A DNA stretch of 28,129 nucleotides from Candidatus Thorarchaeota archaeon (GCA_016933575.1 JAFGAR010000099.1:1-28129), one strand, 5' to 3'. Numbered from the stretch's first letter, positions 3,910 through 24,698 are shown. A program made the numbers and translations. The notes: generated from the letters alone by a model not told the origin.

Positions 3910-4617
3910 CTATATATGATTCATTAGATCCCCAAAGGAACCAATCCTGACTCGGGATGGTTCTACGATTCCGAGTAGTTGTGCATCCTCCTTCGCTATT
4001 ATAGCAATCCTGTTCGTCCCTCGAACTGCTCCAAGACCTGCAGAGGATCTGGCACCAATACCGATATGTCCTGTACTAATCTCATCTAGAATGAAGAAAA
4101 GGACCTTCAGAGGTTCTTTTTGATCAATATTGGCTATTCGTACCTCAACAATCCCCTTAGAGTCTTCTGATTCCACTACCTGCTGGGAGAATAGGCCTCC
4201 CGGTGCATGTGTTTGTCGTTTTCGATCAATCCTGACATGATTACGAGTACGCACAGCTGTGTCTTCAAGCAGCACATCCGACACTTGCACTGCTCCTTTC
4301 AACGAGAAGTAGGTATCCTCATCTTCCTTCTTCGCAAAACCAAAGAGAATCTCCGACCAAAGCAGCTTCTTATTTCTACCATGTTTAAATTCGCACTCGA
4401 CAGGCTTCAGTGCCAACTTCTCCAGTCGTTCGAATTCGCTCCTCAAGACACCCTTTAGCGAGCTACGAGGGATCAGTGGATAGGAGCCAGATGTTGTTTC
4501 GACTTGAAGAACTTCTTCTCTATCGGGATCAGTCCCTCCAATACGAAGCCCAGAGCATATCTCGAGGCCGAATTTTAGAACTATTTCAGTTTTCAGCATG
4601 CTATAGTCGATGATCAA
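3910..4617 (-). CDS. cas7: Cas7-group RAMP (Csm3-like)
   Basis: LRIGG, PLIPRSSLKGVLRS, LFG, G-rich loop IGARSSAGLG; last gene of the cas operon. Confidence 0.88.
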   Translation of the reverse strand: MIIDYSMLKTEIVLKFGLEICSGLRIGGTDPDREEVLQVETTSGSYPLIPRSSLKGVLRSEFERLEKLALKPVECEFKHGRNKKLLWSEILFGFAKKEDEDTYFSLKGAVQVSDVLLEDTAVRTRNHVRIDRKRQTHAPGGLFSQQVVESEDSKGIVEVRIANIDQKEPLKVLFFILDEISTGHIGIGARSSAGLGAVRGTNRIAIIAKEDAQLLGIVEPSRVRIGSFGDLMNHI

Positions 4618-5750: not shown

Positions 5751-6360
5751 CTCTTAGTAGTGCCTCCTTCATTTCTTCAAGAGTCGATTCATGCTCTCCA
5801 AGATCTATCGCGATTCTTGCTCTACTTCTACCTAGTCCCTCTTTCTCAAGCGTTTTGGTAATGAAAAGCGAGATGAACATGTCCACTATCATGTCCTCTT
5901 GTGATAGTGAGTCTGGGACATCAAGAATCATTTCAAATGCAAATCTCGATCCCGGGCTTACTACTTCATGGAAAAAGAGAGCTCCGCTTTCGACGGATCT
6001 ACGTGTAGTATCCAATCGTACTCCAGGGAGGGTTTCTGTCGGAGTAGGTGCGATCAAACGTCCATCAGAGATGACCAGTTTCCCTCTATAATCCTCCACC
6101 CCGAAGAAATCTGCAACAACTGATGCATCGTTGCGAAACGTTGAGAAATATCTCTCAAGTGAACCAGTTGCTACCCGTCTGAGAATTGGAGTCAATCTAG
6201 TCAAGTTCCATCTCAATTTCCCCCTCAGGGTGCTACCTGGAATCATTGGCTTGCCTTGCGACCTCTGAATTGCTAAAATAGGCCCACCTCCTAAGCCAAC
6301 TGATCCACTTCCTATGTGCATAGTGTCCAAAGATTGAAGCACGACATCTATCCGTTTCAT
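5740..6360 (-). CDS. cas7: Cas7-group RAMP (Csm3-like)
   Basis: MHIGSG, PMIPGSTLRGKLR, FFG...RGKLVISDG, GALFFHE. Confidence 0.9.
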   Translation of the reverse strand: MKRIDVVLQSLDTMHIGSGSVGLGGGPILAIQRSQGKPMIPGSTLRGKLRWNLTRLTPILRRVATGSLERYFSTFRNDASVVADFFGVEDYRGKLVISDGRLIAPTPTETLPGVRLDTTRRSVESGALFFHEVVSPGSRFAFEMILDVPDSLSQEDMIVDMFISLFITKTLEKEGLGRSRARIAIDLGEHESTLEEMKEALLRDDV

Positions 6361-8855: not shown

Positions 8856-8856
8856 G

Positions 8857-9177
8857 TTACAACCCTCGCCCTATTTGCTTCAGCATATCATAAAGCGATA
8901 CTATCGAATCTGGATCAATGGGATGACTGATCTCAAGCACATCCAGTATTTCACGCTTAGCTCTGGGGTGAAGGATGATGTCTTGGGGGTTTCCTTTCTT
9001 GATTTGTACTTCATTTCCTTCAACAAATTGACCTTGATCAGAATACCAATTGATTGCATAGAACTCTCCGTTTCGTTCAATTATGCTCATGCCTATCTCT
9101 GCAGAAACTCGATCTAAAGATATGCATGTAGCAAGTTCTCCTACTAGTACCACGTGAAAAAGCGTCTTCTCCGTCAA
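8857..9177 (-). CDS. Small hypothetical protein inside the type III operon (possible accessory subunit)
   Basis: 106-aa ORF tightly coupled to the upstream Cas7 fusion and to cas10; no motif recognised. Confidence 0.6.
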   Translation of the reverse strand: MTEKTLFHVVLVGELATCISLDRVSAEIGMSIIERNGEFYAINWYSDQGQFVEGNEVQIKKGNPQDIILHPRAKREILDVLEISHPIDPDSIVSLYDMLKQIGRGL

Positions 9178-10988
9178 GATGATTCCTCCTCGCAGTCAGA
9201 TAGAGTTCGAATCCCCTCTCCGAAGGCATTCAAAGCCTTTGTTTTCATGTCCCCTACATACTGCGAAACACCATCTTCGATGCTTCTTCCATCATCGAAA
9301 TCAATACCCAAGATCTTTACCATCATACGTCCGAATTCGTTTCGAAAATGGAATCGTCCAATCCGTATTCCTTGTTTCTCACCCGCTCCCATTGATAGCA
9401 GTACCAAACCTAACTTCGTTTCGGAAAGATTCTTGAATTGCAGCTGGCCCATGAATGCTGGAGAGATCTCATCAGTTTTAGCATATCTCACAGCGAGCAG
9501 GCGAGCTGTCTTTCCACTTCCTACTTGAATATTTAAAGGCTGAAGCTTTCCTCTTATAAGAGGTGCATCTTGGACCTCTATCAACGCCTTGAGTGATCCA
9601 TTTTTCGTTGTCATCCCAAAAATATCGCAGACGATACAAGGATGCGAATGATCTCTGCATTCTTCCCGCTGTTGAATTCTCCCTTCTTCTCCATACAATC
9701 TCTTGTGAATAGATGAAGATCTAGATGAATATCTCTCTTGCTTAACGAAACAGCTTTCAACGCTGCCTTCTACTTCGACAAAAGAATGTTCCAATCTTGA
9801 TCTGAACACACCTTTGAGGGTAGATCCTGGAATTACTGTGGTAGGCTTCTCATTTCCTTGATGTTTTTGATAGCTAAACGATTCATATTGATTGATCTTG
9901 CTCTCAAACGACACTCCCATATTCAAAATCTCGTCAAATGATGAGCCAGATTCTATCATCTCGACTATCCTGCTATCAACCTTCTTTGTAGAGGGATGTA
10001 GATGACCTGCTCCCACAAATATGCTATATCCTTTTAGTGGCGTTAGTTCGAACCGGATTCTACCCGAATTCGATAGATGTATCTCATTCCTTGGGGTCAT
10101 GTTCATTTTTCTAACATGCAATAGGTGCCCATTACCTTGACGAGGAATCCCCTCCTTTACTCGATCAATCTCTCTTATGCTTCCGCGCTTAATGGGATGA
10201 TCCCATTTCGCACTTGACCAGTCATTAATCACTTGGGTGAGCGACACATCATTTCCTTTCAAATGATATTGCCAAGGTAGTTCTATCTCTGGTATCTGTT
10301 CCAATGTCCTCTGTTGAAAGACTACGTTAGCTACCGTAACATTCATGCCCCCGAATCCCTTTGTTGTTAGTCCTCCAAGCTTCAGGTGTCCTGAATTGAA
10401 TTTGAAAAGCCTTGACAATAGGAGAGCGAGAGTGACATCATCGACATCACGGATAATCAGTTTGGATGCAAAACGACTGCCAACCTTTACATATTCAATA
10501 GAAAAAAGCGCAGTGTTACTCGTCGCCCCGCCAATACGATCCATAGCGATCCCTTTTCGTTCAGCGGTAGGGACAACACCACCTAACTGACCCGGTAGTA
10601 GCAATGCATCTTCTAGTCTAATTTTGCCTCGATATCCATGAGTTCCAAATAGCTTGCAAGCAGTACAGAATTCATCGATAATCTTCCTTAGCTGCTGTTT
10701 GTTCTTCTCTCTTTGTGCAACTCTAATTCGCTGTTCATGCGCTTTTCCACAAGAATTCTTTCCTTTTTGACTATCACAACAACTCTCTCCAACTCGCTGC
10801 AATTCTGCTACTACAGCACTTCTTAGGACACCTTTCAGACTTGTGCCAGGAAGGTATGGCGTTTCTTTCCCATCAATCCATGTCTTTAGCACTGGCATAT
10901 CAAAATCTTTGCTCTTGCAGTCCGATCCTATTTTCAAGGGTGTAGTATTCTCCCAAAGCAATTCAAAGATATACTCCCCTTCTATCAT
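9174..10988 (-). CDS. cas7: Cas7-Cas7 fusion RAMP (type III-D-like), with Cys-rich zinc sites
   Basis: Two RAMP motif sets: PYLPGTSLKGVLRS...CTACKLFG...LGGLTTKGFG, and VIPGSTLKGVFRS...CIVCDIFG...IGRFHFRNEFG. Confidence 0.9.
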   Translation of the reverse strand: MIEGEYIFELLWENTTPLKIGSDCKSKDFDMPVLKTWIDGKETPYLPGTSLKGVLRSAVVAELQRVGESCCDSQKGKNSCGKAHEQRIRVAQREKNKQQLRKIIDEFCTACKLFGTHGYRGKIRLEDALLLPGQLGGVVPTAERKGIAMDRIGGATSNTALFSIEYVKVGSRFASKLIIRDVDDVTLALLLSRLFKFNSGHLKLGGLTTKGFGGMNVTVANVVFQQRTLEQIPEIELPWQYHLKGNDVSLTQVINDWSSAKWDHPIKRGSIREIDRVKEGIPRQGNGHLLHVRKMNMTPRNEIHLSNSGRIRFELTPLKGYSIFVGAGHLHPSTKKVDSRIVEMIESGSSFDEILNMGVSFESKINQYESFSYQKHQGNEKPTTVIPGSTLKGVFRSRLEHSFVEVEGSVESCFVKQERYSSRSSSIHKRLYGEEGRIQQREECRDHSHPCIVCDIFGMTTKNGSLKALIEVQDAPLIRGKLQPLNIQVGSGKTARLLAVRYAKTDEISPAFMGQLQFKNLSETKLGLVLLSMGAGEKQGIRIGRFHFRNEFGRMMVKILGIDFDDGRSIEDGVSQYVGDMKTKALNAFGEGIRTLSDCEEESS

Positions 10989-11001
10989 GTTTGGATGCCT
11001 C

Positions 11002-11667
11002 CTACAATTGAATCTCAGATGTGATATCTCTATATTGCAACTCGAGCGAACGCACAGACTCCTTAGTAAGAACCTCTATCCTTTCCACATCTAGATGTAC
11101 CACGCCAAGCCCCGCTGATGTTTTACCTCCGATCGCGATATTCCCACGGCTGAGTTCGCGTAAAACCAACTTCAATACCTTTGAGATAATGGTTTCTTCT
11201 CTAAGATCAATATTCTCGAGAACCAGTTGAAATGAGAATTGCGTACTAGGGGCAATTGTTTCCAGCTCATACTTCATGCCATGGCTTGCTGCGCCAGTGA
11301 TCGCGTCGATCGCAACCCCTGGTTTTGTTTCTGTCATCACGGGCTGCAATGGAAGACAATCCGAAAATGAAGCATGGCCCTTCACTCTCAACGAATCATC
11401 AGAATTCCCAAAGATATAGTTAATTATCAACTGCTTATCAGAATGATCTTCAATCAATCTCTCTGTATATCCCCGAATCACACCCTTCAGGCTCGATCCT
11501 GGGATATATGGGACCGACTCCCCTCTAATTGATGTTCTAATTATTGGATTATCATACTTTTCAGCCTTAGTCCCTGATCCGATATGCAATTGGGTCTTAT
11601 TCGTTATAGAACCCTTAATCACTGTTCTGCACTCGAACTTGTCAAAATCATCAGGCCGAATGGTCAT
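11002..11667 (-). CDS. csm3: Cas7 backbone RNase (Csm3/Csx7-like)
   Basis: LHIGSG, YDNPII (candidate catalytic Asp), PYIPGSSLKGVIR, IGGKTSAGLG. Confidence 0.93.
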   Translation of the reverse strand: MTIRPDDFDKFECRTVIKGSITNKTQLHIGSGTKAEKYDNPIIRTSIRGESVPYIPGSSLKGVIRGYTERLIEDHSDKQLIINYIFGNSDDSLRVKGHASFSDCLPLQPVMTETKPGVAIDAITGAASHGMKYELETIAPSTQFSFQLVLENIDLREETIISKVLKLVLRELSRGNIAIGGKTSAGLGVVHLDVERIEVLTKESVRSLELQYRDITSEIQL

Positions 11668-12065
11668 CGCCTCTCTCTCCTCTCTGGACTAGGAGCAAAG
11701 ACTTGTCTGGCAAACTCATCAAATGCTGAATTCTCGTTTTGAATTCTAATCGAATCCAATTCCTCTGCACCTTTGAAGAGTCGTTTTATGTGATTCAGAT
11801 ATTGCCGAGCTGTCCTAGCAGGATCTTTCTCATCGGACTTGATTACCTCCATAAGATCCTGATAGACACATTTACAGAACTCCTTCGGAAGAATCCGTCC
11901 TGACTGATATACAAGGTGCTCTTGCACAGCATAGATACCTTCAACACCTTGTCTTGATGATAGCACCTCAAGAAGCTGATTCAATTGAGACGAACCCTCT
12001 CGTTTCTTCTTGAGCAGTTTACTTACACTAATAGCAGCTTTATTGAGAAGTATTTGTGTTTCCAT
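11664..12065 (-). CDS. cas11: Probable Cas11 small subunit (Csm2-like)
   Basis: About 133 aa, helical-looking and basic, with a YQSGR motif; first gene of the effector operon. Start may be GTG 12068. Confidence 0.65.
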   Translation of the reverse strand: METQILLNKAAISVSKLLKKKREGSSQLNQLLEVLSSRQGVEGIYAVQEHLVYQSGRILPKEFCKCVYQDLMEVIKSDEKDPARTARQYLNHIKRLFKGAEELDSIRIQNENSAFDEFARQVFAPSPERRERR

Positions 12066-12177
12066 CACACCACGCTCCTAATCCATCACCATGTCACGAA
12101 CCTAGATATAAGATTATAGGATTTTTCCTGTGAATATGGTTTATCGAGGAAACATGCGTTTGTGATGGAAAGTTTCT

Positions 12178-12996
12178 CTACATTAGCTCTATATCGGTTG
12201 AGATCATTCCAAGACCCGCAGTACGGTGCTTTCCGATATTACTATATTCTGCGAAACGAGCAAGACCAGCAGTCATCCGCGACATTGGGATCGAGCCATC
12301 TTTGATGGTATAGTACACAGTGCCAATGAATCCAACTATCTGCATACCAGATCCTGTCTTTAGTGGATAGGTTCTTATCGTGTATCTCGGGATCTCGATA
12401 TTTCTTTTTACCCACTCCCTGTACTCCCCAAGCGGGAAGAAATAGGTCGTTCTATCTATAGACTGCCAGATTTTCATCAAGGCAGGGAAGACCTTTTCAG
12501 GCATAGGGAACAAGCATAATGCGTTCGAATCTGAATGTGCCAGCTGCGTTGGAGTGCGGAATGTCAATGCGATCCGAATCCTCTCAGCTTTTTGCAGCTC
12601 TGGTGCGTCTACCCATGTATGCATGATTTCTTGGGGCTCCATAATCGAAACACCAATGCGTCGTACTGGCAAGATGTTCTCATACAAGCGAATGTACAAA
12701 TCATCCTTCAGAATCAGGTGCTTGGTGAAATCACGGTAGTTTTGGTGATTAAGGAGAGTGATATCGAAGGAGTCCTCAATTCCCTGTCGTAGTGTCGTGC
12801 TGAAATGCCTGTCATGCGACATAATGCCGAGGGCATACATCCGAACTCCCTGTCCTTGGTGAGTATCACTACTCAGTTTTCTATCATAATTCTTCAAGAT
12901 GTCGAGAAAGGCTGCGCGAAGAGGGATGCCTGAGAATCCTATCTCCTTGGTCACGGGACTGGTTATATCAAACCTTAGAGATATCAAGCTTAGCAA
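12178..12996 (-). CDS. cas6: Cas6 crRNA-processing endoribonuclease
   Basis: FRTPT, LFPMPEKVF, GFIG and C-terminal IGKHRTAGLG loop; TTG start preceded by AGGAGG. Confidence 0.93.
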   Translation of the reverse strand: MLSLISLRFDITSPVTKEIGFSGIPLRAAFLDILKNYDRKLSSDTHQGQGVRMYALGIMSHDRHFSTTLRQGIEDSFDITLLNHQNYRDFTKHLILKDDLYIRLYENILPVRRIGVSIMEPQEIMHTWVDAPELQKAERIRIALTFRTPTQLAHSDSNALCLFPMPEKVFPALMKIWQSIDRTTYFFPLGEYREWVKRNIEIPRYTIRTYPLKTGSGMQIVGFIGTVYYTIKDGSIPMSRMTAGLARFAEYSNIGKHRTAGLGMISTDIELM

Positions 12997-13244: not shown

Positions 13245-13725
13245 CTTGCAAAAGCAGATCCCACCTATAGGGAATTGAAACACGAAAAAGTCAAAGATTG
13301 CTGGTGCTTTCTTGACCCCCAGCTTGCAAAAGCAGATCCCACCTATAGGGAATTGAAACATGTCGTATGAAGCCGATGAAGTCCTCCAAACACGGCCACT
13401 CTTGCAAAAGCAGATCCCACCTATAGGGAATTGAAACCATTGAACTCTGTAATCGCATCAAGCATACCTTCCAAACTTGCAAAAGCAGATCCCACCTATA
13501 GAGAATTGAAACATATAGTACCCATAGTCCATGCCCATCGTCGCATCGCACTTGCAAAAGCAGATCCCACCTATAGGGAATTGAAACTACCAACTTGGTC
13601 TAATAGTCACATTGTCCTTGATGTATATCTTGCAAAAGCAGATCCCACCTATAGGGAATTGAAACTCCATGGATGCGGAGACCACACTGAAAACTTGTCT
13701 TCTTTGCCTGATCGTTTTGCAAAAG
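13245..13725 (+). CRISPR. CRISPR array 2: 6 repeats CTTGCAAAAGCAGATCCCACCTATAGGGAATTGAAAC (37 bp) plus a terminal remnant
   Basis: Repeats at 13245, 13323, 13401, 13476 (one G>A), 13551 and 13629. Spacers between full repeats are 38-41 bp. Remnant TTGCAAAAG at about 13717. Confidence 0.98.
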
Positions 13726-13759: not shown

Positions 13760-14458
13760 TCAGTGTTCAGTTTTCTTAAGGCCTTTCCATGCACGAACGG
13801 TTTTCCCAAGTTCGGTTATGTACACCTCACGGACCCGCCCACTCGACTCGCTGACCCTACGTTCTACCAATCCCCAATTCATAAGCTTCTTCACAAGTTT
13901 CGATGCGCTCGACGTTTGCTCTAAGGATGCCATCTCCATAGCATCTCGCCATCTTTTGCTAAGATCCTTTAGGGACTTTACCATCCCGTTTTCGCTATTG
14001 TAAAGCACGTCTAACATTGTAAGCTGTGCCTTGGTAAGACTAAGCGTGGGCAAGGTTGGTATCTCCCTAATGTCCTTCGGTTGACGTGTTTCATGATCGG
14101 TGATGGTAACAAGAAACATATCGCTCTCAGTTAGAAATGCCGCCTGGGATAACGCAAGAGTAACGAATCTGGTACCAAGTCCCACATAGAAAACAGGGCT
14201 GTATCCCTTACACTCATCCTGTATCATTGTTAGAGTGGTACTGAGAATAGCCATATAATCCTCTGGATCGACCTGCTTGATGACGAACTTGATACCTTTC
14301 GGTTGATAGGTGTCCCTGAGTTTCTCAGCATGCATTACTGAGGAAGCATCCGCGACCAAGGCAACCATCTTGTAGCTCCCTTGAATCATGGCAAACTCGA
14401 TTCTCTCATGATCGTACATTCCAACTCCAGCTATTAGCACGCGTTTTCCCTTAGCCAT
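13760..14458 (-). CDS. csa3: Csa3-like CARF + winged HTH transcriptional regulator
   Basis: N-terminal Rossmann-like domain (VLIAGVG, FYVGLGTRFVTLAL). C-terminal MarR-like wHTH (VKKLMNWGLVER...GRVREVYITELG). GAGGTG precedes ATG 14458. Confidence 0.8.
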   Translation of the reverse strand: MAKGKRVLIAGVGMYDHERIEFAMIQGSYKMVALVADASSVMHAEKLRDTYQPKGIKFVIKQVDPEDYMAILSTTLTMIQDECKGYSPVFYVGLGTRFVTLALSQAAFLTESDMFLVTITDHETRQPKDIREIPTLPTLSLTKAQLTMLDVLYNSENGMVKSLKDLSKRWRDAMEMASLEQTSSASKLVKKLMNWGLVERRVSESSGRVREVYITELGKTVRAWKGLKKTEH

Positions 14459-14563
14459 GTTTCCACCTCTCACCAAGCATTTGATGGATTATGCTCCATG
14501 ATTATAACATTTGCCTTTCGCATGAAAGCTTTGTATTGATGATGTATATCCAAATGACTATTA

Positions 14564-16582
14564 CTAATTTCTATCGTCTCGGAGCACAGCCAAACGATTG
14601 TGTTGATGCAACACCTCATGATCCTCAATATATGGACGTTTCGAGAGTTCTCGCCTAATATCCACGAATGCCTTTGGTGGGTTGTGGAAGAAGACCACCT
14701 TCTTTGGCATCAAGCTATCGAAGAGTTCCATGAGCTGATCCTTGTCTGGATGATAGTTGAATATCTGATGCGATTCGAACTCCCAATTAAGGACCTTGCA
14801 TTTGACGGGCACTTTGTGGAATCTATCGTCGCCCTCTTTTCCTATCTCAACAAATCCCCTTCCTGATATCAGATCTAGCGTTCCACTACTTCTTGGCGCA
14901 CCGATGACTACGACGAGATTATCTTTTCCCCCCAATACCTGCTTCAATGCACTGAATCTATCCGAGCTAAGTTTCCCATGTAGATTAGCGTCCATGCTAA
15001 TCACACATTCGCCTTTGATCGCATTCTTTAGACCGATTCCTCCAAGATGTGGATAGTCTTCTTCCAATCGACGAATCATAGCTGAGTGGAATGGATCATT
15101 GTGCATTTGGATCTTCTCCTCGATGGATGGATCTAAGTCATCAGCCCTATCACGGAGAATGCACATCTGTTCCCATGTTGCTGAATCAAAGTAGAATGGG
15201 ATTCTCCCTGCATTCCAATCAATGAGTCCTTGGCGAATAATGAAATAGGTCACTATCGCTCCTATGTTCTGATCTGAAAGAAGTAGAGTGACTCCTCCCT
15301 TTTGATATACATCGACGATGTCACTATACAATCGAGCTCGCGTCAGGGATTCCTTTGGAAACTCAAGATCCGCTGCGGATCCATCGCAAATGATCGCGTC
15401 AGGGTGTACCTTCAATGTACTCAGTGCGCTTCTCCCTGATGCTATCGGCTCGAATTCCAAGAGATTGAAGTCTCCTGTGAAAAGAATGCTGTAGTCATCC
15501 ACTGCAAAAAGAGTCATAATAGCACCTGGGAAATGCCCCGCTTGGCATATCTTGATTGAGAATCCCTGTCCGAATTCCAATGTTTCTCCATAGGATACCA
15601 GTACCATTCTCGCTAGCAGCTTTGAGAATTTCCTATCGAGCAATTTCGAGGCTTTCTCAAGTTGCATTCCCTCTTGTTCATCCCTGCTAAGAGCTTGATA
15701 GTCGTCTTCCTTCATGATCTCCTTCTTAGTGATCTCTAGGATTTCTTGATATTCTCTACTCCTTGCCAAGCCCAACTCAAGTGTGGCTCTGGTAGTTAGC
15801 AGAGGCGCCTCACAACCGTATTTCTCATAGAGATCGATGACTCCCCCGAAATGGTCTGAGTGGGCATGTGAAACTACGACTAGATCAAGCTTTTCCGGAC
15901 CAATACTCTCAATGAGATCTGAGCAATCAGCAGTCTTTTCAGGAGGCCAATAGAATCCAGCATCAAGGAGGATACGGAGTCCACCAAGCCGAAGCTTCAT
16001 GCTGCTTTGTCCACTTCCACCTACTTGTCTTACTGCTACCCATTTCTTTGTCGCATCTATCGAGTTAAGTTTGAAGGGTTTTAGATGCGTAGCAGTCCTT
16101 GCACGAGTGTCTAGCCAGCAGGAAACGAGCTCCCGTGGCAAAGGCGGACCGGTAATATATAGATAGACTCCGAATTCGTTGGCGTATCGCTCAATATGCT
16201 TGAATAGCTCGGTTCCTCGTCGTATCCGAACCTGTACAACTGGGTACTCGCTAAAATTCTTCATTATGAGAAAGCTGTGTAGTGAATATTTATCCACAGA
16301 GGGGATTTCTTTATCGATCCAGATCGTATTGACTAGCTTATCAAGAGCGAAGCTCTTGCGATCGTGTTTTGATATGATAGATTGAATTCTTTCCTCATAG
16401 ACTTTCGTCGGTTTCCATTCCCAGTCCAAATAGCCTACACGGAATACATGACGCTTACCATCAATCTTGAAGTTCATCAGGAGAGGCTTACCGCACTCTG
16501 AGCATTTGTCATTGTATTGTGAAGGTCTAAAGCAATATGGACAGATCATTTCATTACTCACAGATTCCACCACAACCGACAT
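14564..16582 (-). CDS. Metallo-beta-lactamase/beta-CASP nuclease with N-terminal zinc ribbon
   Basis: LLDAG, SHAHSDH, AGHFPGA, FTGD; beta-CASP-like CDGS, YHPD, FFH; N-terminal CPYC...CSEC. Start uncertain (16582-16624). Confidence 0.88.
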   Translation of the reverse strand: MSVVVESVSNEMICPYCFRPSQYNDKCSECGKPLLMNFKIDGKRHVFRVGYLDWEWKPTKVYEERIQSIISKHDRKSFALDKLVNTIWIDKEIPSVDKYSLHSFLIMKNFSEYPVVQVRIRRGTELFKHIERYANEFGVYLYITGPPLPRELVSCWLDTRARTATHLKPFKLNSIDATKKWVAVRQVGGSGQSSMKLRLGGLRILLDAGFYWPPEKTADCSDLIESIGPEKLDLVVVSHAHSDHFGGVIDLYEKYGCEAPLLTTRATLELGLARSREYQEILEITKKEIMKEDDYQALSRDEQEGMQLEKASKLLDRKFSKLLARMVLVSYGETLEFGQGFSIKICQAGHFPGAIMTLFAVDDYSILFTGDFNLLEFEPIASGRSALSTLKVHPDAIICDGSAADLEFPKESLTRARLYSDIVDVYQKGGVTLLLSDQNIGAIVTYFIIRQGLIDWNAGRIPFYFDSATWEQMCILRDRADDLDPSIEEKIQMHNDPFHSAMIRRLEEDYPHLGGIGLKNAIKGECVISMDANLHGKLSSDRFSALKQVLGGKDNLVVVIGAPRSSGTLDLISGRGFVEIGKEGDDRFHKVPVKCKVLNWEFESHQIFNYHPDKDQLMELFDSLMPKKVVFFHNPPKAFVDIRRELSKRPYIEDHEVLHQHNRLAVLRDDRN

Positions 16583-16692
16583 AGAGGAGCTGCGATATTT
16601 GATTCTTATCTGTATCACTTGCAATCAGGAGGGAAAGTTTCTGGCGGATATCCTAAATGCTCATGGTTCAAGGATATTCTGGTGGTAAAAGC

Positions 16693-17388
16693 ATGAGGGT
16701 AGGTATAGAAGATCGAGATGGCACAATGCGAGTGGATGATAGCTCTCTGTACAATATAGCTTTGGGCGGCTCTTTGGCTGAGGTGTTGAAGCAACTTGCT
16801 GATGCAGGTACACTTGTTGATATCCTTACGATCACTTCACCATCTCTTAATCAGGATGAATCCTTACTCAAAAGAGAAACTCACGGTGTTAGAATCATCA
16901 TGGTTGGTGAGGATCATGTTGTTCTGGGTCCGAAGAGACCCATCTTTACATCCTTCCTACCATTGGATGATATCCTTATGGTACGAATCACAGAAACTCA
17001 AGAATGTGATGAAGGATACATCGAGGATGACGATTTCGATGACGAGTTCTTAATTCCCGATGGGCTCTTACACGAAATTAGTCCTCTCGACCTTGAGGAT
17101 GCTATTGCTGACACCTCTGTTGTAGTTCTATTGATTATTGGAGAGGAGGACAACTCCAAGATCGTTGAAATGATGCAAAGCCTTGCAGAGGAATTTCACG
17201 AAGATGCTCTCTTCATTAGGGTAGCTCCAACAGAGGAAGTTGAGACAGAGTTTGGAGTAGATGAAGTTCCTGCTGTAGTCATTCTATCTGATGATGAGAT
17301 ATTGAGCCAAATTGTAGGAGTACAGCAAATCAGAAGATATCGTAAGGATATCTTGGATGCCATTGACCTTTCTGAGGCGGGTGACTGA
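16693..17388 (+). CDS. Unknown N-terminal domain + acidic linker + thioredoxin-like fold lacking CxxC
   Basis: C-terminal LAEEF...FIRV...EFGVDEVPAVVIL...QIVG pattern of the Trx fold; no CxxC. Confidence 0.65.
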   Translation: MRVGIEDRDGTMRVDDSSLYNIALGGSLAEVLKQLADAGTLVDILTITSPSLNQDESLLKRETHGVRIIMVGEDHVVLGPKRPIFTSFLPLDDILMVRITETQECDEGYIEDDDFDDEFLIPDGLLHEISPLDLEDAIADTSVVVLLIIGEEDNSKIVEMMQSLAEEFHEDALFIRVAPTEEVETEFGVDEVPAVVILSDDEILSQIVGVQQIRRYRKDILDAIDLSEAGD

Positions 17389-17389
17389 C

Positions 17390-18091
17390 ATGAGTAGATC
17401 TATCATTCCCTCAATTCGATCTAATGACTTTGAGGAAACAATTGCCAAGTATGAGCGAGTTATCGTAGATTTTTATTCAGATTTCTGCGCTCCATGCTCG
17501 GCTTTAAGCTCTGCCTTAGAAGAGCTAATTCCTGAATACCCAGAATCATATTACTTCAAGATAGATATCGAAGAGGCTTCTGAACTAGCTGATGATATGG
17601 ATGTCCAAGCCATTCCGTGTCTAATGTTCTTCAATGATGGAAAGATCAAGAAACAGGTCATTGGATATCTTGGTCCTGAGAAGCTGGAGAATGATATCCG
17701 AAGTTTCTTGGGTTATGAGACCAATGATCTTTCAGACACGTTCGCAGACGGTGAACTTTGGGACCTTGATGATTCTGATGCAGTCGATATGATACAAAAT
17801 GTGCGTTTGTCCGTTCTCTATTTCATTGGCTCTGAGAAAACAGGAAGCGGATCCCTAAAACGGAATCTCAAGATGCTGGCAAATGAATTCGAAGGGATGA
17901 TTTTCTTTGGCATGCTTGAGTCTGTAGACTCTCCAGCTACAAGGAATAGACTAAGAATCCCACGAAAACAGCATGTCATTTTATTCCTTCAAGATGGCTT
18001 ACCAAAGAGCAGATTGATCGGGAAGGCGGGAATGCGTGAACTGAGGACGGAGATAGCCCGATTGCTATCACAAAAGTATCAAGAATCATGA
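17390..18091 (+). CDS. Tandem thioredoxin-domain protein (first domain with CAPC, second without CxxC)
   Basis: IVDFYSDFCAPC, VQAIPCLMFFNDG; second Trx-like repeat. Confidence 0.88.
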   Translation: MSRSIIPSIRSNDFEETIAKYERVIVDFYSDFCAPCSALSSALEELIPEYPESYYFKIDIEEASELADDMDVQAIPCLMFFNDGKIKKQVIGYLGPEKLENDIRSFLGYETNDLSDTFADGELWDLDDSDAVDMIQNVRLSVLYFIGSEKTGSGSLKRNLKMLANEFEGMIFFGMLESVDSPATRNRLRIPRKQHVILFLQDGLPKSRLIGKAGMRELRTEIARLLSQKYQES

Positions 18092-18162
18092 ACGTCTGGT
18101 GGAAAGCTTCTCATTGTTAGTTGATATCTATTTGCCTCTTTCCAAGTTAGGAGGTATATGGA

Positions 18163-19014
18163 TTGGAGTTCTACACACAGAAAGGTGCCGTTTGCGCGTC
18201 TATCGTCAGCTTTAGCTTGAGCATCGGCTTTAGAGGTTTGATAATCTGTTTTTCGACAATCAAGGATACAGTGGCACTGCTCTTGTATTTTCCTCTGTGG
18301 ATTTCTATTGATCTGCTGTTGATAGTCGCTTTCTCAATCTATGGATTCTTTTTTGTATCTCTATCAATCATCATTACGAATCACTTCCAAATGTTTCTCT
18401 TGATCGATCCCTTGATGTATTCGTTTTTTGAAATTAATATACTATCAATTCAGATACTAGCACAATATAGCGAGAAGCTAAATTCACTTGTAGGTGCAGA
18501 TATTTACGATTATGTTCTTTCAATTCTAATTCCTTTTCTCCTGGCAATATCCTTCACCTGTATTCTCCTCTTTCACATGTCAATACCAATCTATGTATCA
18601 TGGGTTACTCAAATTGCTACTCTATTCACAGGCTATTTTGGCGCCCTGTTGCTAGGCATGTATCCTTGCCGATACTTCCTTCTGCAAAGAAAGGCAAATC
18701 CCTACACATGGGGTTCTCCATTCCTCATGGATCTACTTTACTTCAATATACAAGGCACTTCTCATGGTAGATCTCTTAGCCATGTGACCCAACCAGTGCA
18801 TTCTACACGAAGACCTCAATCAACTGCGAGAAGTGACCCTCGTAGTGATCACATAATTGGAACCCCGCGGAGCGAATCCAGAAGAGTCAATGATACGATC
18901 ATTGCTCCGAATATGGTACTGATAACCCCCCGAGGAGAGATAATCTGTTCAAGATGTGGGACCTCGAATTGGACAAGCAGGCGACGTTGTAGAAGATGTC
19001 AGGCAGCACTATAG
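18163..19014 (+). CDS. Multi-pass membrane protein with C-terminal RanBP2-type zinc finger
   Basis: About 4-5 hydrophobic segments, a polar linker, then CSRC-GTS-N-WTSRRR-CRRC (C-x2-C-x3-N-x6-C-x2-C); AGGAGG upstream. Confidence 0.7.
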   Translation: MEFYTQKGAVCASIVSFSLSIGFRGLIICFSTIKDTVALLLYFPLWISIDLLLIVAFSIYGFFFVSLSIIITNHFQMFLLIDPLMYSFFEINILSIQILAQYSEKLNSLVGADIYDYVLSILIPFLLAISFTCILLFHMSIPIYVSWVTQIATLFTGYFGALLLGMYPCRYFLLQRKANPYTWGSPFLMDLLYFNIQGTSHGRSLSHVTQPVHSTRRPQSTARSDPRSDHIIGTPRSESRRVNDTIIAPNMVLITPRGEIICSRCGTSNWTSRRRCRRCQAAL

Positions 19015-19125
19015 ATGCGAAATCGTATCTGTGTTACTAAAGAAAAGTTTCCCATGAAATAGAAAGTTTCCAAGATTGGATTCAATACATCATATTACTT
19101 AGGTATGTTTTGAGGGTCATACGAA

Positions 19126-19527
19126 ATGTCTGGAAACGATGATGTTGTCTATATCGATGAGGAAGGAAATGTGATTTCTGCGAATAGAGTTTCAAAAACC
19201 TCAAAGCAACCCAAAGGAGCTTTATCAGCAATACGGGATAATTTGGGAGAGTTCTCCAACGATAGAAATGACGGTTCTGATGTTGTCTATATAGACGAGG
19301 AAGGGAATGTGATATCTGGAAACCGAGTCCCATCAACGACAGATGCGGAGAAGGGCGCAAAGACAGCAATTCGAGATAATCTTGGTGAATTCTCAGAGAA
19401 TAGAGATCAAGTATCGAAGGTCGTTCATGTAGATGAAGAAGGTAATGTGATATCTACATCAGAGGAAGATGAAGAACCTGAGAAGCAGATAACAGCTATT
19501 CGTGATAACCTTGGAGAATTTAGGTAG
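19126..19527 (+). CDS. Three-unit tandem-repeat peptide protein; putative conjugation-tag or RiPP-like precursor
   Basis: Units of 44, 46 and 43 aa, each VV[YH][IV]DEEGNVIS-variable-AIRDNLGEF[S/R]. DNA differences within the motifs are mostly synonymous, supporting that it is coding. Function is inferred. Confidence 0.8.
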   Translation: MSGNDDVVYIDEEGNVISANRVSKTSKQPKGALSAIRDNLGEFSNDRNDGSDVVYIDEEGNVISGNRVPSTTDAEKGAKTAIRDNLGEFSENRDQVSKVVHVDEEGNVISTSEEDEEPEKQITAIRDNLGEFR

Positions 19528-19540
19528 AGGGAGATCAGAC

Positions 19541-19984
19541 ATGAAGCGAGGACAGAGCTATCACATGGGCGTTAGTCGGGAGATACTCATAATGGGTGCT
19601 GATTTGAATCGTCCTCGCATGAGAGTCGAATATGAGAGAGTTTCGCAGTTTTGCAAGGGATTCAGCTTCAAGAAGAAAACTTTGGCGGGAAAAGAGGTAC
19701 TAGACAGAGTTGAGGGATATTTCACCATCGAGGGTAGACGATTCGGACTTCGTATCATGATTCCAAAGAACTATCCATACGAGATCCCGAGGGTATTTCC
19801 CCTTGGGTGGAGGCCCCAAGGAGCACCTCATCAATACTGCGGTGGTGATCTCTGTTTGATGCGACCCGAACAGTGGAATGAGATATACTCCCTCGCTTTC
19901 GTCATCAAAAAGGCGCAATACTGGGTTCACAAGTATCTCAAATGGCGAATGACCGGAAAGTGGCCTGGTAGGTCTCAAGATTAG
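19541..19984 (+). CDS. Prokaryotic E2 (UBC-fold) conjugating enzyme
   Basis: IPKNYPYEIPRV, PHQY-x3-DLCL (catalytic Cys), downstream W, and C-terminal W-x3-G-x-WPG. Confidence 0.85.
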   Translation: MKRGQSYHMGVSREILIMGADLNRPRMRVEYERVSQFCKGFSFKKKTLAGKEVLDRVEGYFTIEGRRFGLRIMIPKNYPYEIPRVFPLGWRPQGAPHQYCGGDLCLMRPEQWNEIYSLAFVIKKAQYWVHKYLKWRMTGKWPGRSQD

Positions 19985-19995
19985 GAGGCGAAAGG

Positions 19996-20847
19996 ATGGA
20001 TTTCGATAGAATTCAGTATATTCTTGCACCAGAGGAACTTGAAAAGAAGCGAGTCGTTGTGATAGGCCTGGGAAGTGGAGGTGCTCCTGTCGTTCAGCAT
20101 CTTGCTATGAGCGGGGTCCGCAAGTGGTCTTTGTTTGATCCCGATCTCCTTGATGAAGTGAACCTTGTCAAACATCCTGGGATGCGAAAGGACCTAGGGA
20201 AGACTAAGATCGCTGTGATAGCTGAATGGCTAATGGATAGGAATCCAGATTCCGAGATCCGAGAATTCCCTGAGGATATCCTCGATTCAACAGACTTCGA
20301 GAGAGAGGCTAGAAATGCGCATCTTATCATCTCTGCAACTGATACACTTTCAGTTCGGCAGTTCATCAATAGAATCGCTGTGAGGCATGGTATTCCTTGT
20401 GTCACTGCCAGCGTCTTTCGAACAGCTTTCGGAGGAGAAGTGTACTCGTATATCCCCGGGAAAACTGGATGCTATCAGTGTATGAACATCGTCAGCGGTA
20501 AGCTGGGTTGGGGGAATATCGAGAATCAAGTTGAGATGACTGAAGATGAACAGGACCGAATATACGGACTCGGTCAGGAAGATTATCGAGCATCAGGTCT
20601 ATCGATGGACATCGCGATAATTTCAGCGATTATGGCAAAAAGAGCCCTAAGCCTTCTATTAGATTCTCCCAATCCAGTTTATTTTCCCCAGGATTCCTCC
20701 AATTATCTGATTTTCTATATGCGTGGAATGGGATCAATCCCCTCGCTGTCAAGCTTGAAGTATGCAATTCCTGCTCAGAAGGATTGCTTCTGTTCGTTTA
20801 ACGACGGCGAAGAATCAGCTGCTAATGAAATCAGTGACCTGGAGTGA
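19996..20847 (+). CDS. ThiF/MoeB/E1-like adenylating enzyme
   Basis: VVVIGLGSGG, FDPD-x5-NLVKH, DLGKTK, SATD, GCYQC and C-terminal CFC. Confidence 0.93.
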   Translation: MDFDRIQYILAPEELEKKRVVVIGLGSGGAPVVQHLAMSGVRKWSLFDPDLLDEVNLVKHPGMRKDLGKTKIAVIAEWLMDRNPDSEIREFPEDILDSTDFEREARNAHLIISATDTLSVRQFINRIAVRHGIPCVTASVFRTAFGGEVYSYIPGKTGCYQCMNIVSGKLGWGNIENQVEMTEDEQDRIYGLGQEDYRASGLSMDIAIISAIMAKRALSLLLDSPNPVYFPQDSSNYLIFYMRGMGSIPSLSSLKYAIPAQKDCFCSFNDGEESAANEISDLE

Positions 20848-21884
20848 TATGGATGAAACTAAAGGGATTTTTGCAGAAACAAGAAAGAGTTCTCTATCTC
20901 ACTCAACTACGGGAATCATTTGGCCTCGATAGGGTGATTATCTCAACCAATCTACTCAACTCAATGGTCAATCGAGCCAGCGAATATCCCGTCATGGAAG
21001 AAGGCGGTGTGCTGGTTGGATATATTGAAAGCGATTGGGATCCGTTGAATGGTTTCTCTAATCCCCATGCGAAGATTCATATCGTGAACTTTATCCCAAG
21101 TGGTCCACGAGCGCAAAGGTCTTCTACCCATCTATTTTCAGACCTTACATTTCAGGAATTTGAGTTTCAAAGACTTCATGATATCGATCCTAACATGCTA
21201 CATCTTGGTAGCTGGCACAGTCACCACTGTAATGGATTGAAGAATCTAAGTGAAGGTGATCTAAATTCATACTTCAATATTCTCCACTCAAAGAATCATG
21301 CCCATGACTTCTATCTGGCAGTACTTCTACATACCTTTCCTACTGGTAGGTTGAGAAAGAAAAGTGAAGTAATGCATTCCTTCTCTTTCTACTTGATATC
21401 TCGAAAAACCGGAAAGACCGTGTTCATCTTGGACAGTTCTTGTATTGAAGTAACTCAGGATCTTGTGCTATATGCAGATTTCATTAGTTCAGGATACGAG
21501 CTTCCAACTGAATTAGATGTTCAAGAGAAGCGTGAAAGATCATGGTTCATTAGAGATCAAGCGAAGGAGATTTTGAAAGAGGACAATATTTTACTTAGTT
21601 CATTACTATCCGAGTTTCCCTATATTATTCAAGGCAACTCTATTGTCATAGAAGGCACATACGCTCTTAGACTAGTACGTCGATACTATGCAGGAAACAC
21701 CTTGATCGAATACCAATATCCGGAAACAACTGATGCTGAAGGAATAGAGATCCTCCTGTACGATATTTCCCAGATGGAAAACGAACATAGTGATCTGACG
21801 CTCAAAATCAGGGCTGGTCCGATTAGTATTCGGCATGAGATCTTCTCAGTGGTGCTGGGTTATTTTCAAGAATCTTGGACCTAA
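20844..21884 (+). CDS. JAB/JAMM (MPN+) metallopeptidase with unknown C-terminal domain
   Basis: EEGGVLVG and LGSWHSHH-x7-SEGD; start overlaps the E1 stop (GTGA). Confidence 0.9.
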   Translation: MIWMKLKGFLQKQERVLYLTQLRESFGLDRVIISTNLLNSMVNRASEYPVMEEGGVLVGYIESDWDPLNGFSNPHAKIHIVNFIPSGPRAQRSSTHLFSDLTFQEFEFQRLHDIDPNMLHLGSWHSHHCNGLKNLSEGDLNSYFNILHSKNHAHDFYLAVLLHTFPTGRLRKKSEVMHSFSFYLISRKTGKTVFILDSSCIEVTQDLVLYADFISSGYELPTELDVQEKRERSWFIRDQAKEILKEDNILLSSLLSEFPYIIQGNSIVIEGTYALRLVRRYYAGNTLIEYQYPETTDAEGIEILLYDISQMENEHSDLTLKIRAGPISIRHEIFSVVLGYFQESWT

Positions 21885-21893
21885 GGAAACATC

Positions 21894-22505
21894 TCACTCA
21901 TATTGATTTCTTATCTTTGTAATCATCTCATTAAGATCGTTGATATCGGTGAGTACAATTTCTGCGTCATCGGAATCGAGCTCATATACAGGTTTCCCCA
22001 TGATTTCAGGACTGAACCTCCGAAGCCAGTAGTATGATAATGTTACCTTTCGTTCGTACCTATTGTTGAGGATATATCCCGCTAAGACCGCGCTTGATGC
22101 CATCGTTTTTCTTCCTGCTGTAGTATCTATTATGATCCTTTCGTTTCTTGCCGTCTTGTGAAAAATCCCTTCCGTTATGCACTTTACACCAAGGCTTAGG
22201 TTCTCTTCAGGTATCCATACTATGTCGTCTGGGTGGAAGGTGATATCATCCAATCCATCCGAATGCATATGTTCAAGATTCTTCGTAAGCAGATCAATTA
22301 CCTCTTTGACATACTGCTGACTCGTAGATGAGGGTTCTGCTCTCTCATCCCAAGATGTGACAAAGAAGATGTCACCTATTGGAACATGTCTATCGTCCAT
22401 CAAATAGGATGCTATCGAATTCGCACAGGCAATTGGCGTTATTCCTACAACCGAAAAATAGGACCCCGTTGGTTTCAGCCTCAAGAAAAGCAACACTCCT
22501 ATCAA
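21894..22505 (-). CDS. Stand-alone CARF domain protein (candidate ring nuclease or cOA sensor)
   Basis: SVVGITP, FFVTS and IIIDTTAGRKTMAS CARF motifs; no effector domain; start uncertain. Confidence 0.75.
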   Translation of the reverse strand: MIGVLLFLRLKPTGSYFSVVGITPIACANSIASYLMDDRHVPIGDIFFVTSWDERAEPSSTSQQYVKEVIDLLTKNLEHMHSDGLDDITFHPDDIVWIPEENLSLGVKCITEGIFHKTARNERIIIDTTAGRKTMASSAVLAGYILNNRYERKVTLSYYWLRRFSPEIMGKPVYELDSDDAEIVLTDINDLNEMITKIRNQYE

Positions 22506-22682
22506 CTAGATTTCTCATTAGCTCTTTCAAATACTCGGTGTGGTCCCAACTGCATATTTAACACTTGAGTAGGAAAGATTCCTTCGTACTAGCATCCTTA
22601 TGGGATATTACTCCCATAAATATTGAATCGAAAGAAAAGTAAAAACCTCATGTCTGAAATGATCATGATATTGATTAAGCAC

Positions 22683-24698
22683 TCATTCAAAAGACATCTC
22701 AATATGGCTTCTTTCATGAATATTCTCATTGACATTTGTGTTTGGGTGGGTACTCTCAGATGTCGTATCTAACCTTTCTCTGTGAAAGAGCACTATTGAT
22801 TCATATCGTATGTTTCCTCTGAGGGATTTCTCAAGGGGTCGCTTCAAATACATCTTAGGATTCAGTCCATGATTAGATCCAAGTTCAATTAGGATTCTAT
22901 CATTTTCAACTTCTAAGAATGTTCCATGGTTTGATCTACTACGCCCCCTTGAGTTGAATGTCGCTTTTAGTCGCGTATCCACTAGAAGTGATAAAAGATC
23001 CTGCTGTGTTAGGAGTATACTCCTAGCAGATTTTTCGAAATGCGCATCATCTAAGAGATACAACTCCCCCGTACCAGTTGAAGCAACTCTCTCGTCTGAG
23101 ATCTTCAAATGATTGTTGCCAATTACAATGGCAATCCGTGATCCATGGACAAGAGTGGATGTTTGAGCCTCCAGCGACCTGTCGAGGAAGAGAATGAACT
23201 CTGCAATAGACATTGCTTCACGACTTCTTCCAAAATCTACGAGCGCCTTAACTAACGTCTTTCCATAATCTGTTGGGATCAATTCTATATTGCATTTCCT
23301 ACTTTTTCTTCTTGGATTCCCTGCTAGTCGCTGATCAAGCGTTTGAAGATCCTCCTCCGATTGAATGAATCCCATCAATATCATTTGTTCCAGATCATTC
23401 CCAATATAATCAATTGCAGTGGAATAGGGTGGAGAGTTTACTCCCGCTCGCATGGGTCCCAATTTTCGGAAGACTCCGATATCCGATGCATCTCCTCTTA
23501 CAATAACACTTCTTCCATGGTTCACTCCCAGTTTCCGCCTAATAATCGAGGATAGGATTCCAGTACGATAGATCAATTGGCATCTATCACTAAAGAGGGC
23601 AAAGGCATCCGTTTTCTTCTTCTTCTTCTTTTGAGAACTAATAGCCATGGTCAATCCCAGTTCAAGTAGAGGTTTTAGACAATCAGGGGATCTCATAATA
23701 AACTGCTTTATCCATATGAGATCAGAAAATTTGGTCATGTCATGCTTCAATATCCCTTGCGATTCTTCAGATCGGATACCTCCTAAGTCTTCACGATAGT
23801 CTTGAACTACATCACAGTATTGTCTGTAGTACTCTAAACTATCATCTGTCATAGATAATAGATCTGTTTTCGATTGAGCGACTGCTATCGCGACAGGATT
23901 GATGTCCATTCCTATTCCATCAAGTCCCATCAGATTGGTTTCAATCAAAGACGTGCCGCTACCGGAGAAGCAGTCAATGACGATCCCCCTTTCCTGTGGA
24001 TGTACAATGTTAACTAAGGCTTTTGCCAGTCGCGGATGAAATCGACCTTTGTAGGGATATAACGCGTGAGATAGATAAAGCGAGGGTTCCTTCCTCTCAG
24101 CTACATAGTCCAAGAGCCGTTTTCCTACCCGTGCCCCAGCAGAGGCTGGTATTCGTTTTAGCATATTGAATCGGCTGGAAACGATCCTATCAAAGAACTT
24201 CTCCATTGTGAGAGTTGGGAGAGTTTTTGTCACCTTTAAGATGTACTCGCTCATCTCAATGAAAAACTGATGGGCGATTAGGCGTATTGCTCTCTTCTCT
24301 CCAATTGCGAACACTTGCCTATCAATCCCAAGCATCTCCGATTTTTCTAGTGAGGATACCTTTCTATCACCGATGGCGTATATTTCAGATGTATATGCAA
24401 GTCGCCGCTGGAGTTTTTGAACAACTGATTCATCATCTACATCAACCCTGAATCCCTGAGTCGGTCCGTATGCCACTTCGAATAGAAAATAATCCTGGAA
24501 TCGAATAGACTCTATAATTGGTTCAGATGATATTCTATTCATGAAGGACTTGAATGGCTCTATGTGTAGCTCATCTACGAGATTGACAATGGGTTCTGGT
24601 TTTTTTCCTGTGATACTTTCGATCTCTAGTTGTGCGAGGTAGATTTCATGTTCGTCTTTGATGGTTTTTGAGAGTTTAAGGATCGTATACACTTGCAC
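22683..24698 (-). CDS. Amino-DNA methyltransferase (probably N4-cytosine) with N-terminal extension
   Basis: HALYPYKGRFHP, IDCFSGSGTS (motif I), MDINP, NSPPY (motif IV). Confidence 0.85.
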   Translation of the reverse strand: MQVYTILKLSKTIKDEHEIYLAQLEIESITGKKPEPIVNLVDELHIEPFKSFMNRISSEPIIESIRFQDYFLFEVAYGPTQGFRVDVDDESVVQKLQRRLAYTSEIYAIGDRKVSSLEKSEMLGIDRQVFAIGEKRAIRLIAHQFFIEMSEYILKVTKTLPTLTMEKFFDRIVSSRFNMLKRIPASAGARVGKRLLDYVAERKEPSLYLSHALYPYKGRFHPRLAKALVNIVHPQERGIVIDCFSGSGTSLIETNLMGLDGIGMDINPVAIAVAQSKTDLLSMTDDSLEYYRQYCDVVQDYREDLGGIRSEESQGILKHDMTKFSDLIWIKQFIMRSPDCLKPLLELGLTMAISSQKKKKKKTDAFALFSDRCQLIYRTGILSSIIRRKLGVNHGRSVIVRGDASDIGVFRKLGPMRAGVNSPPYSTAIDYIGNDLEQMILMGFIQSEEDLQTLDQRLAGNPRRKSRKCNIELIPTDYGKTLVKALVDFGRSREAMSIAEFILFLDRSLEAQTSTLVHGSRIAIVIGNNHLKISDERVASTGTGELYLLDDAHFEKSARSILLTQQDLLSLLVDTRLKATFNSRGRSRSNHGTFLEVENDRILIELGSNHGLNPKMYLKRPLEKSLRGNIRYESIVLFHRERLDTTSESTHPNTNVNENIHERSHIEMSFE

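Follow-up and report, generated by a model that had tools for sequence, protein, structure and literature searches.

Ubiquitin-like conjugation is a recognised arm of bacterial immunity, with the type II cyclic-oligonucleotide-based antiphage signalling system (CBASS), Bil and Bub as its representatives. In type II CBASS (family 6b, Iyer et al. 2006), an E2-E1 fusion, Cap2, precedes a JAB peptidase, Cap3, and a short disordered stretch at the C-terminus, the tail of the cyclase itself, serves as tag in place of a beta-grasp domain. Bil (BilABCD) and Bub (6E/DUF6527) follow a tag-E2-E1-JAB logic in which the JAB pre-processes tags with C-terminal extensions; their tags comprise between one and three beta-grasp domains and have a terminal Gly. 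Family 6a carries E2, E1 and JAB in that order in one polypeptide, with no small peptide gene described for it (Iyer et al. 2006), and MccB, the microcin C7 synthetase, adenylates the C-terminus of a short ribosomal peptide. Here we describe a related cassette in the type III CRISPR locus of a Candidatus Thorarchaeota archaeon, found on a 28,129-nucleotide (nt) stretch of DNA (GCA_016933575.1 JAFGAR010000099.1:1-28129; hereafter the window) that is an entire contig, C76, of a metagenome-assembled genome (MAG) of 3.47 Mb (215 contigs, 85.5% complete, 6.9% contamination). The reading we favour, at about even confidence, is that an autonomous mini-tag conjugation cassette is now a co-regulated accessory of this locus.

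Between positions 13760 and 22505 the window encodes a Csa3-like regulator with CARF and winged helix-turn-helix (wHTH) domains, a beta-CASP nuclease, two thioredoxin-like (Trx) genes, a transmembrane zinc-finger (TM-ZnF) protein, a repeat peptide, E2, E1, JAB and a small CARF protein. The first-pass annotation had listed the same genes, and each was confirmed in its place, minor corrections aside. The block is composite, a conserved five-gene tagging core plus other genes. The core consists of:

18163-19014, plus strand: polytopic membrane protein with a C-terminal zinc finger of RanBP2/NZF pattern
19126-19527, plus strand: tag precursor peptide of 133 amino acids (aa), three units of ~44-46 aa
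19541-19984, plus strand: UBC-type E2 (PADLOC E2 profiles to 6e-8; cysteine motif PH.Y..G.LC.M)
19996-20847, plus strand: single-domain ThiF/MccB-type E1 adenylase, 283 aa (ThiF 9e-35)
20844-21884, plus strand: JAB/JAMM metallopeptidase (PADLOC JAB 3e-9) with a ~200-aa clade-specific C-terminal domain

Archaeal comparisons drew on 400 Asgard genomes, 86 genomes of the same family and 27 congeners. The loci compared were G028:C42 (L003, 9.2 kb), G391:C35 (8.9 kb) and G389:C4 (L041), together with a metagenome contig, L049.

Within the defence library of PADLOC, the CBASS type II profiles are the best matches to the three enzymes (E1 1e-25, E2 6e-8, JAB 3e-9), whose order is that of families 6a and 6b. 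E2 and E1 are nevertheless separate genes here and not a Cap2 fusion, and the triad is spread over three genes and not one polypeptide as in family 6a. None of the window's open reading frames (ORFs) matches SMODS/CD-NTase, the cyclase of CBASS, and no match to DUF6527 (PF20137), the Bub protease family, was found in the block. The E2 most likely starts at the ATG at 19541 and not at the GTG at 19502. A profile built from four E2 homologues matches eukaryotic UBC enzymes at 1.6e-5, and the cysteine, Cys105, is invariant, whereas the Bub E2 uses serine. The E1 has two CxxC-type zinc pairs, and comparison of its homologues revealed no conserved catalytic cysteine; it resembles the Bub E1 in this and differs from Cap2, and its single domain sets it apart from the multidomain IAD-AAD-CYS E1 of Bil. 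By sequence it lies closer to MccB, its nearest solved relative (E 1e-18), and to ThiF than to solved Cap2. The JAB has the intact JAMM motif expected of a Cap3-type peptidase, its metal site E..HxH..S..D being complete and E52, H125, H127, S136 and D139 invariant.

Each tag unit pairs the motif VV[YH][IV]DEEGNVIS with an invariant AIRDNLGEF, and the linkers are variable. At ~44 residues the tag is too short for the beta-grasp ubiquitin fold, and because the units are 44-46 aa long and share a conserved GE[F/Y] end in place of Gly, it is not a ubiquitin-like protein of the Bil type. As in type II CBASS, a short disordered C-terminal segment makes up the tag, here borne on a free-standing peptide gene of one to three units and not on the tail of a cyclase. 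No description of a free-standing conjugation tag of such size was found in the literature searched. The peptide gene is single-unit in G028 and G391. On L049, a 2.3-kb contig and the sole match of a metagenome scan with the peptide, a TM-ZnF gene precedes an in-frame fusion of three peptide units to E2. This natural fusion parallels BubAB of Bub, a fusion of a ubiquitin-like protein to E2 that is cleaved by its peptidase. The membrane protein is present in all four archaeal copies of the module; its tail in the window fits C-x2-C-x3-N-x6-C-x2-C exactly, and in G028 an NYN RNase domain is inserted.

From these parts we infer a conjugation pathway. The JAB would trim the precursor at the invariant ...GE[F/Y] or close to it, the MccB/ThiF-like E1 would adenylate the newly made C-terminus, and the E2 cysteine would accept the tag as a thioester and hand it to a target amine; the JAB may also remove the tag and so reverse the modification. 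The TM-ZnF protein, which bears the NYN RNase in one genus, would be the likely target, reader or effector. We also considered peptide maturation, in which a multi-core precursor is cut by the JAB and activated by the MccB-like E1 to yield a ribosomally synthesized and post-translationally modified peptide (RiPP) or a peptidyl-nucleotide; the membrane protein would then have an export or immunity function. MccB being the best solved relative of the E1 agrees with such a role, as do the tandem cores of the precursor, with their invariant motifs and variable linkers, and a radical SAM gene that follows JAB in G391. That gene occurs in one locus only, however, and the match to MccB covers the adenylation core only, the N-terminal peptide clamp of MccB being absent from the 283-aa E1; the peptide here does not end in Asn, and E2 and JAB accompany the E1, unlike MccB. 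Above all, a UBC-type E2 with an invariant cysteine is found in every cassette, even where it is fused to the peptide, and we know of no RiPP pathway that requires such an enzyme. We therefore consider peptide maturation very improbable.

Homologous E2-E1-JAB triads, with E1 39-47% identical, occur in Streptomyces, Phytohabitans, Solirubrobacter, Dehalococcoidia, Planctomycetota and Desulfobacterales. All 13 bacterial loci with an E2 match (L005-L018) have a conserved small peptide immediately ahead of E2, observed directly in ten of them. These peptides carry the motifs [IV]D..G and ...GE[YF]; two of the ORFs end precisely at the second motif, and the rest continue into variable tails. Across the bacterial loci and a distant Asgard variant, the peptides retain [IV]D..G, with GE[YF], or else an aromatic end, at the C-terminus. 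The Asgard variant (L052, G168:C192, positions 210-901) has a small ORF ending in ...KIYIDKNGRITT...FKHQVWY directly before a divergent E2 and E1; its C-terminus is aromatic and lacks the GE motif.

The bacterial cassettes sit in varied company: after a SMODS cyclase and patatin (CBASS) in L015, beside Mrr-STAND and a metallo-beta-lactamase (MBL) in L005, and among housekeeping genes in Streptomyces and Phytohabitans. No CARF or cas genes were found around them, nor any neighbours shared among these loci past the four-gene core. Judged by these neighbourhoods, peptide-E2-E1-JAB is an autonomous module that joins varied partners. An adjacent MBL-fold gene, as in family 6a, is seen in the window (the beta-CASP gene) and in the Planctomycetota locus L005, whereas the G028 and G391 loci have none. 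In L015 (Desulfobacterales MAG JABXJX010000004.1, 6429-10996) a SMODS cyclase and patatin effector are followed directly by a 57-aa peptide gene and separate E2, E1 and JAB, with no Cap2 fusion; a tie to a cyclic-oligonucleotide immune system is common to type II CBASS and the locus studied here. Because this CBASS operon has a peptide gene and separate enzymes, a free peptide may serve as the tag in some type II CBASS. In six Streptomyces species (L006, L008-L011 and L013) the coordinates of the cassette locus, ~8440-11000, agree within ~40 nt, and in L006 the flanking genes are dxr and a LacI-type regulator. This has the look of a cassette conserved on the chromosome and not of a defence island.

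The varied bacterial contexts, in which the homologues are autonomous or accompany unrelated systems, speak for the main rival to co-regulation. In such pure co-location, a defence or stress module of independent origin would have entered a CRISPR-rich defence island a single time and hitch-hiked with it since, and the promoter palindrome described below would be a feature of that island unrelated to Csa3 or cyclic oligoadenylate (cOA). We regard pure co-location as possible, if somewhat doubtful. Only 3 of the 400 Asgard genomes have a close homologue of the E2; members of the JAB clade occur in 3 of the 86 family genomes and in none of the 27 congeners. A full HMMER search with the JAB returned 12 full-length relatives, the named ones all from Thorarchaeota, among them NHJ14516.1 on a 31.6-kb contig; a word-indexed protein search returned a single 54%-identical fragment, on a 1.3-kb contig. 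Scans of viral contigs with the JAB and with the peptide gave no matches, and thus no sign of a virus-borne cassette.

The conserved core across the archaeal copies is TM-ZnF, peptide, E2, E1 and JAB, and all three copies with visible context sit in CRISPR-Cas loci, in three different gene orders. G028:C42 reads PIN-like partner, small CARF, a solo degenerate repeat, peptide, TM-NYN-ZnF, E2, E1, JAB, cas1, cas2. G391:C35 reads E2 (cut at the contig end), E1, JAB, radical SAM, small CARF, partner, a weak HEPN-like match, peptide, TM-ZnF, cas1, cas2. The repeat in G028:C42 (~3303-3340, between the small CARF and peptide genes) is a single degenerate CRISPR-like repeat with ~10 mismatches to that of the window, and no second copy was found on that contig. 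Identity among the three archaeal copies is 55-63% for E1, 30-34% for JAB and 41-44% for Cas1. Despite different orders and deeply diverged sequences (30-60% protein identity), the module keeps its linkage, with cas and CARF genes never more than a few kb away, which argues against pure co-location. The module, the small CARF protein and Cas1 nevertheless share one pairwise pattern, G028 and G391 being nearer each other; this fits a single ancestral locus, as pure co-location would have it.

A second link to the CRISPR genes is a palindrome, GGAAA[G/C]TTTCC. Its context includes a second contig of the same genome, C105, whose final 37 nt are the CRISPR repeat that opens C76 (window 1-36). Because the end of C105 and the start of C76 carry an identical repeat, the two are probably a single locus split by the assembler within the array. 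Before its terminal repeat, C105 encodes rad50-mre11-herA-nurA, a second small CARF, cas2 and cas1 (C105 27261-30821). The 9-nt core, GAAA[GC]TTTC, occurs at 29 sites in the 3.47-Mb genome, no excess over base composition, yet six of these lie on C76 and C105 (59 kb) against ~0.5 expected from the genome counts. Those in the window, given without strand, are:

12168-12176: palindrome GAAAGTTTC, between cas6 and the effector operon, upstream of the latter
16633-16641: palindrome GAAAGTTTC, in the 32-nt promoter gap from which beta-CASP and orf243 diverge
19062-19071: palindrome GAAAGTTTCC, 64 nt ahead of the start codon of the peptide gene; a variant lies at 19042

On C105 the palindrome, with sites at 28721 and 30852, precedes nurA and cas1, and one-mismatch variants precede TM-ZnF and the small CARF gene (the latter at 22572). 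The position ahead of the peptide ATG is kept in three genera, at 67 nt in G028 and 66 nt in G391. In G028 the palindrome and a 32-nt promoter segment are also duplicated ahead of E2, and on another contig of that genome a palindrome lies ~70 nt upstream of a csa3-like gene. A palindrome common to cas1, the effector operon and a distant csa3-like gene is not readily explained by co-location. A role as general promoter element was rejected, the genome-wide frequency being at chance and the sites on contig C139 stemming from an unrelated repeat. That repeat, of ~60 nt, occurs in two copies ~1.1 kb apart among small ORFs (C139 ~3010-3100 and ~4095-4190), contains the GGGAAACTTTCCC core and belongs to a family that differs from the promoter element of the CRISPR locus.

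The remainder of the type III locus in the window, together with the regulator gene that opens the block, is made up of:

1-2479, plus strand: CRISPR array, 34 repeats of 37 nt, extending past the contig start
2758-3894, plus strand: Card1-like CARF-nuclease (Card1_endonuc 3e-6, CARF_Card1)
3910-12068, minus strand: type III-D-like effector operon (RAMPs, Csx10-like, Cas10, small subunit, fused double RAMP, orf134)
6360-8855, minus strand: Cas10, within this operon, with a GGDD motif at residue 588
12178-12996, minus strand: Cas6 (family match)
13760-14476, minus strand: Csa3-like CARF-wHTH regulator (PADLOC CARF3 1.8e-14; Csa3 1.8e-5)

The GGDD motif of this Cas10 fits the earlier description of a cyclase-competent type III system alongside the block, and the Card1-like nuclease is the canonical cOA effector of the locus. 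The product of 13760-14476 combines an N-terminal CARF with a C-terminal wHTH domain, as in the Csa3 family; it matches MarR_2, DUF6293_C and HFX_2341_N in Pfam, and cas_HTH/Csa3 in NCBIfam at 1.9e-4, which is under that model's cut-off. Its natural company is cas6 and the effector genes. A 100-aa ORF between cas6 and csa3 (13291-13593, minus strand) has no family match, and three tandem homologues lie beside the csa3-like gene of G389 (L087 7456-8358). In L041, also of G389, two small ORFs with weak SAVED-domain matches (7839-8947) lie between type III effector genes and a small CARF/PIN-like pair.

In Sulfolobales, Csa3a binds cyclic tetra-adenylate (cA4), and the BRE/TATA of the cas acquisition genes is preceded, at a distance of 12 bp, by a CRISPR-associated promoter palindrome, CAPPa (PMC8699464). 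The Thorarchaeota locus likewise encodes a CARF-wHTH protein and has a locus-specific palindrome just upstream of core promoter elements, that of cas1 included. The palindromes themselves are unlike (TCCC-N8-GGGA in Sulfolobales, GGAAA[G/C]TTTCC here), and the predicted regulon here would also take in a protein-conjugation cassette. By this analogy the Csa3-like factor is the obvious candidate binder of GGAAA[G/C]TTTCC, and cOA-responsive expression would follow. Since the cassette recurs in CRISPR loci and the palindrome is common to cas promoters, co-regulation with the cas genes is plausible from sequence. In Thorarchaeota, the cassette would then be a long-term resident of the type III / cas1-cas2 locus, wired in through the palindrome. 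An extended form of this reading makes the cassette an arm of type III immunity: target RNA would trigger cOA synthesis, the Csa3-like factor would induce conjugation through GGAAA[G/C]TTTCC, and the 44-residue tag would be placed on viral or host proteins or on the membrane ZnF/NYN protein, with the same mini-tag family extending from Streptomyces to Asgard and left unannotated because it is tiny. We hold this fuller scheme to be unlikely on balance.

Several observations weigh against co-regulation. No copy of the palindrome was found ahead of cas1 in either G028 or G391, or in the G389 type III locus. In vitro, DNA binding by the S. solfataricus Csa3a was non-specific and cA4-independent (PMC8699464). 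The csa3-like homologue of G028 adjoins cas6 on a contig other than that of the module, and in G391, too, no csa3-like gene adjoins the module; in G389, a genome without the module, a homologue neighbours type III effector genes in a locus of the same type, an arrangement that also favours co-location. Genomic instances number only three, all in one archaeal family, and because the module, the small CARF gene and cas1 share a pairwise pattern, CRISPR locus and module may have been inherited or moved as one block. Cas10 was looked for in G028 and not found. The Streptomyces and Phytohabitans copies, finally, have housekeeping flanks, and so the cassette needs no cOA system.

The first-pass annotation had taken the bracketing of the operon by two CARF genes as a sign of what may be an ancillary arm induced through Csa3 and cOA. 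The coupling part of that proposal gains from the recurrence of the core in all three CRISPR loci and from the palindrome common to cas promoters. The bracketing itself does not hold as a signal, because the csa3-like gene lies apart from the module in G028 and occurs without it in G389; both flanking CARF genes are ordinary residents of the CRISPR locus, with or without the block, and not dedicated parts of the cassette. As to synteny with cas10, the module is CRISPR-linked in three of three cases, and cas10 shares its contig only in the window, being elsewhere in the genome in G391 and not found in G028. The alternative also offered, an independent cassette inserted into a CRISPR locus, probably describes the origin of the cassette.

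The second flanking CARF gene is as follows:

21894-22505, minus strand: stand-alone small CARF protein, 203 aa (PADLOC and NCBIfam CARF matches near 1e-5)

It is convergent with JAB, the stop codons being 10 nt apart. An AlphaFold2 model (pLDDT 90) has the Rossmann-like fold of the CARF superfamily with ligand-site motifs after beta1 and beta4, and matches the CARF domains of Csm6, Crn1/Sso2081, Cam1, Cad1, Csa3 and Card1 (Foldseek E 4e-6 and weaker); these motifs, G.TP.A.N and D.T.GRK (D.TAGRK), are invariant in 12 homologues. Of the 400 Asgard genomes, at least 13 have a member of the small CARF family, and a ~360-aa PIN-like protein directly follows it in eight other Asgard loci. No PIN-like partner was found anywhere in this assembly, which, at 85% completeness, may simply not include the gene. 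The second small CARF paralogue, on C105, is 34% identical and precedes NurA-HerA-Mre11-Rad50; a CARF gene at the head of a DNA-end-resection operon behind cas1-cas2 is unusual. Immediately past the small CARF gene of the window (22683-24698, minus strand) lies a gene for a 671-aa protein, part of which weakly resembles N6/N4 DNA methylases and which faintly matches DUF1156, an anti-phage-associated model.

Coupling could also be post-translational, with the small CARF protein sensing cOA and gating the conjugation enzymes or the membrane protein in place of its PIN-like partner. Its gene abuts JAB in the window, where the partner is missing, a homologue (39-44% identity) lies near the module in all three archaeal loci, and the modelled fold, with its D.TAGRK and G.TP motifs, is that of a bona fide CARF protein. 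Against such gating, G028 and G391 keep small CARF and PIN-like partner as a two-gene unit of their own, at least ten other loci carry the family without E2, E1 or JAB, and the partner may be merely unassembled here. Stand-alone CARF proteins of this size are, moreover, often ring nucleases (PMC12409355), and the model matches Sso2081. The small CARF gene is a general Asgard CRISPR-locus gene and not module-specific, and we consider gating by its product, like peptide maturation, less likely than pure co-location and quite improbable in itself.

The genes between the regulator and the core complete the block:

14564-16624, minus strand: zinc-ribbon beta-CASP MBL nuclease (Lactamase_B 5e-10, RMMBL, weak aCPSF1 match)
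16657-17388, plus strand: orf243, with a weak cysteine-less Trx-like C-terminal domain
17357-18091, plus strand: thioredoxin (Thioredoxin 1.3e-19) with a CAPC motif and a second, degenerate Trx-like domain

Gene spacing suggests that orf243 through JAB (16657-21884) form one co-directional cluster, with beta-CASP divergent. The beta-CASP protein, a rare accessory, begins with a CxxC...CxxC zinc ribbon, and its single close homologue (74%) lies on a 2.5-kb contig of a module-free genome. The gene at 16657-17388, previously called the first of two thioredoxins, has no family match; its product shows weak, cysteine-less similarity (E 5e-4) to the C-terminal half of the true thioredoxin. Of the genomes with the module, this one alone has beta-CASP, orf243 and Trx at the locus, and beta-CASP and Trx were rejected as module members, being absent from the other loci. 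Rfam and tRNA scans of the window gave no matches.

To our knowledge, the substrate of the enzyme triad of the '6a-type' operons described in 2006 has never been identified, and the conserved ~44-aa peptide that precedes E2 in bacteria and Asgard archaea is a concrete candidate for it. Literature searches for a link of CRISPR or CARF to E1, E2 or JAB returned nothing relevant. If the cassette is a type III output, protein tagging would join nucleases, proteases, membrane effectors and transcription among the outputs under cOA control. The cassette is also relevant to how diverse conjugation systems are in the archaea closest to eukaryotes, a lineage in which it would stand beside eukaryote-like ubiquitin machinery.

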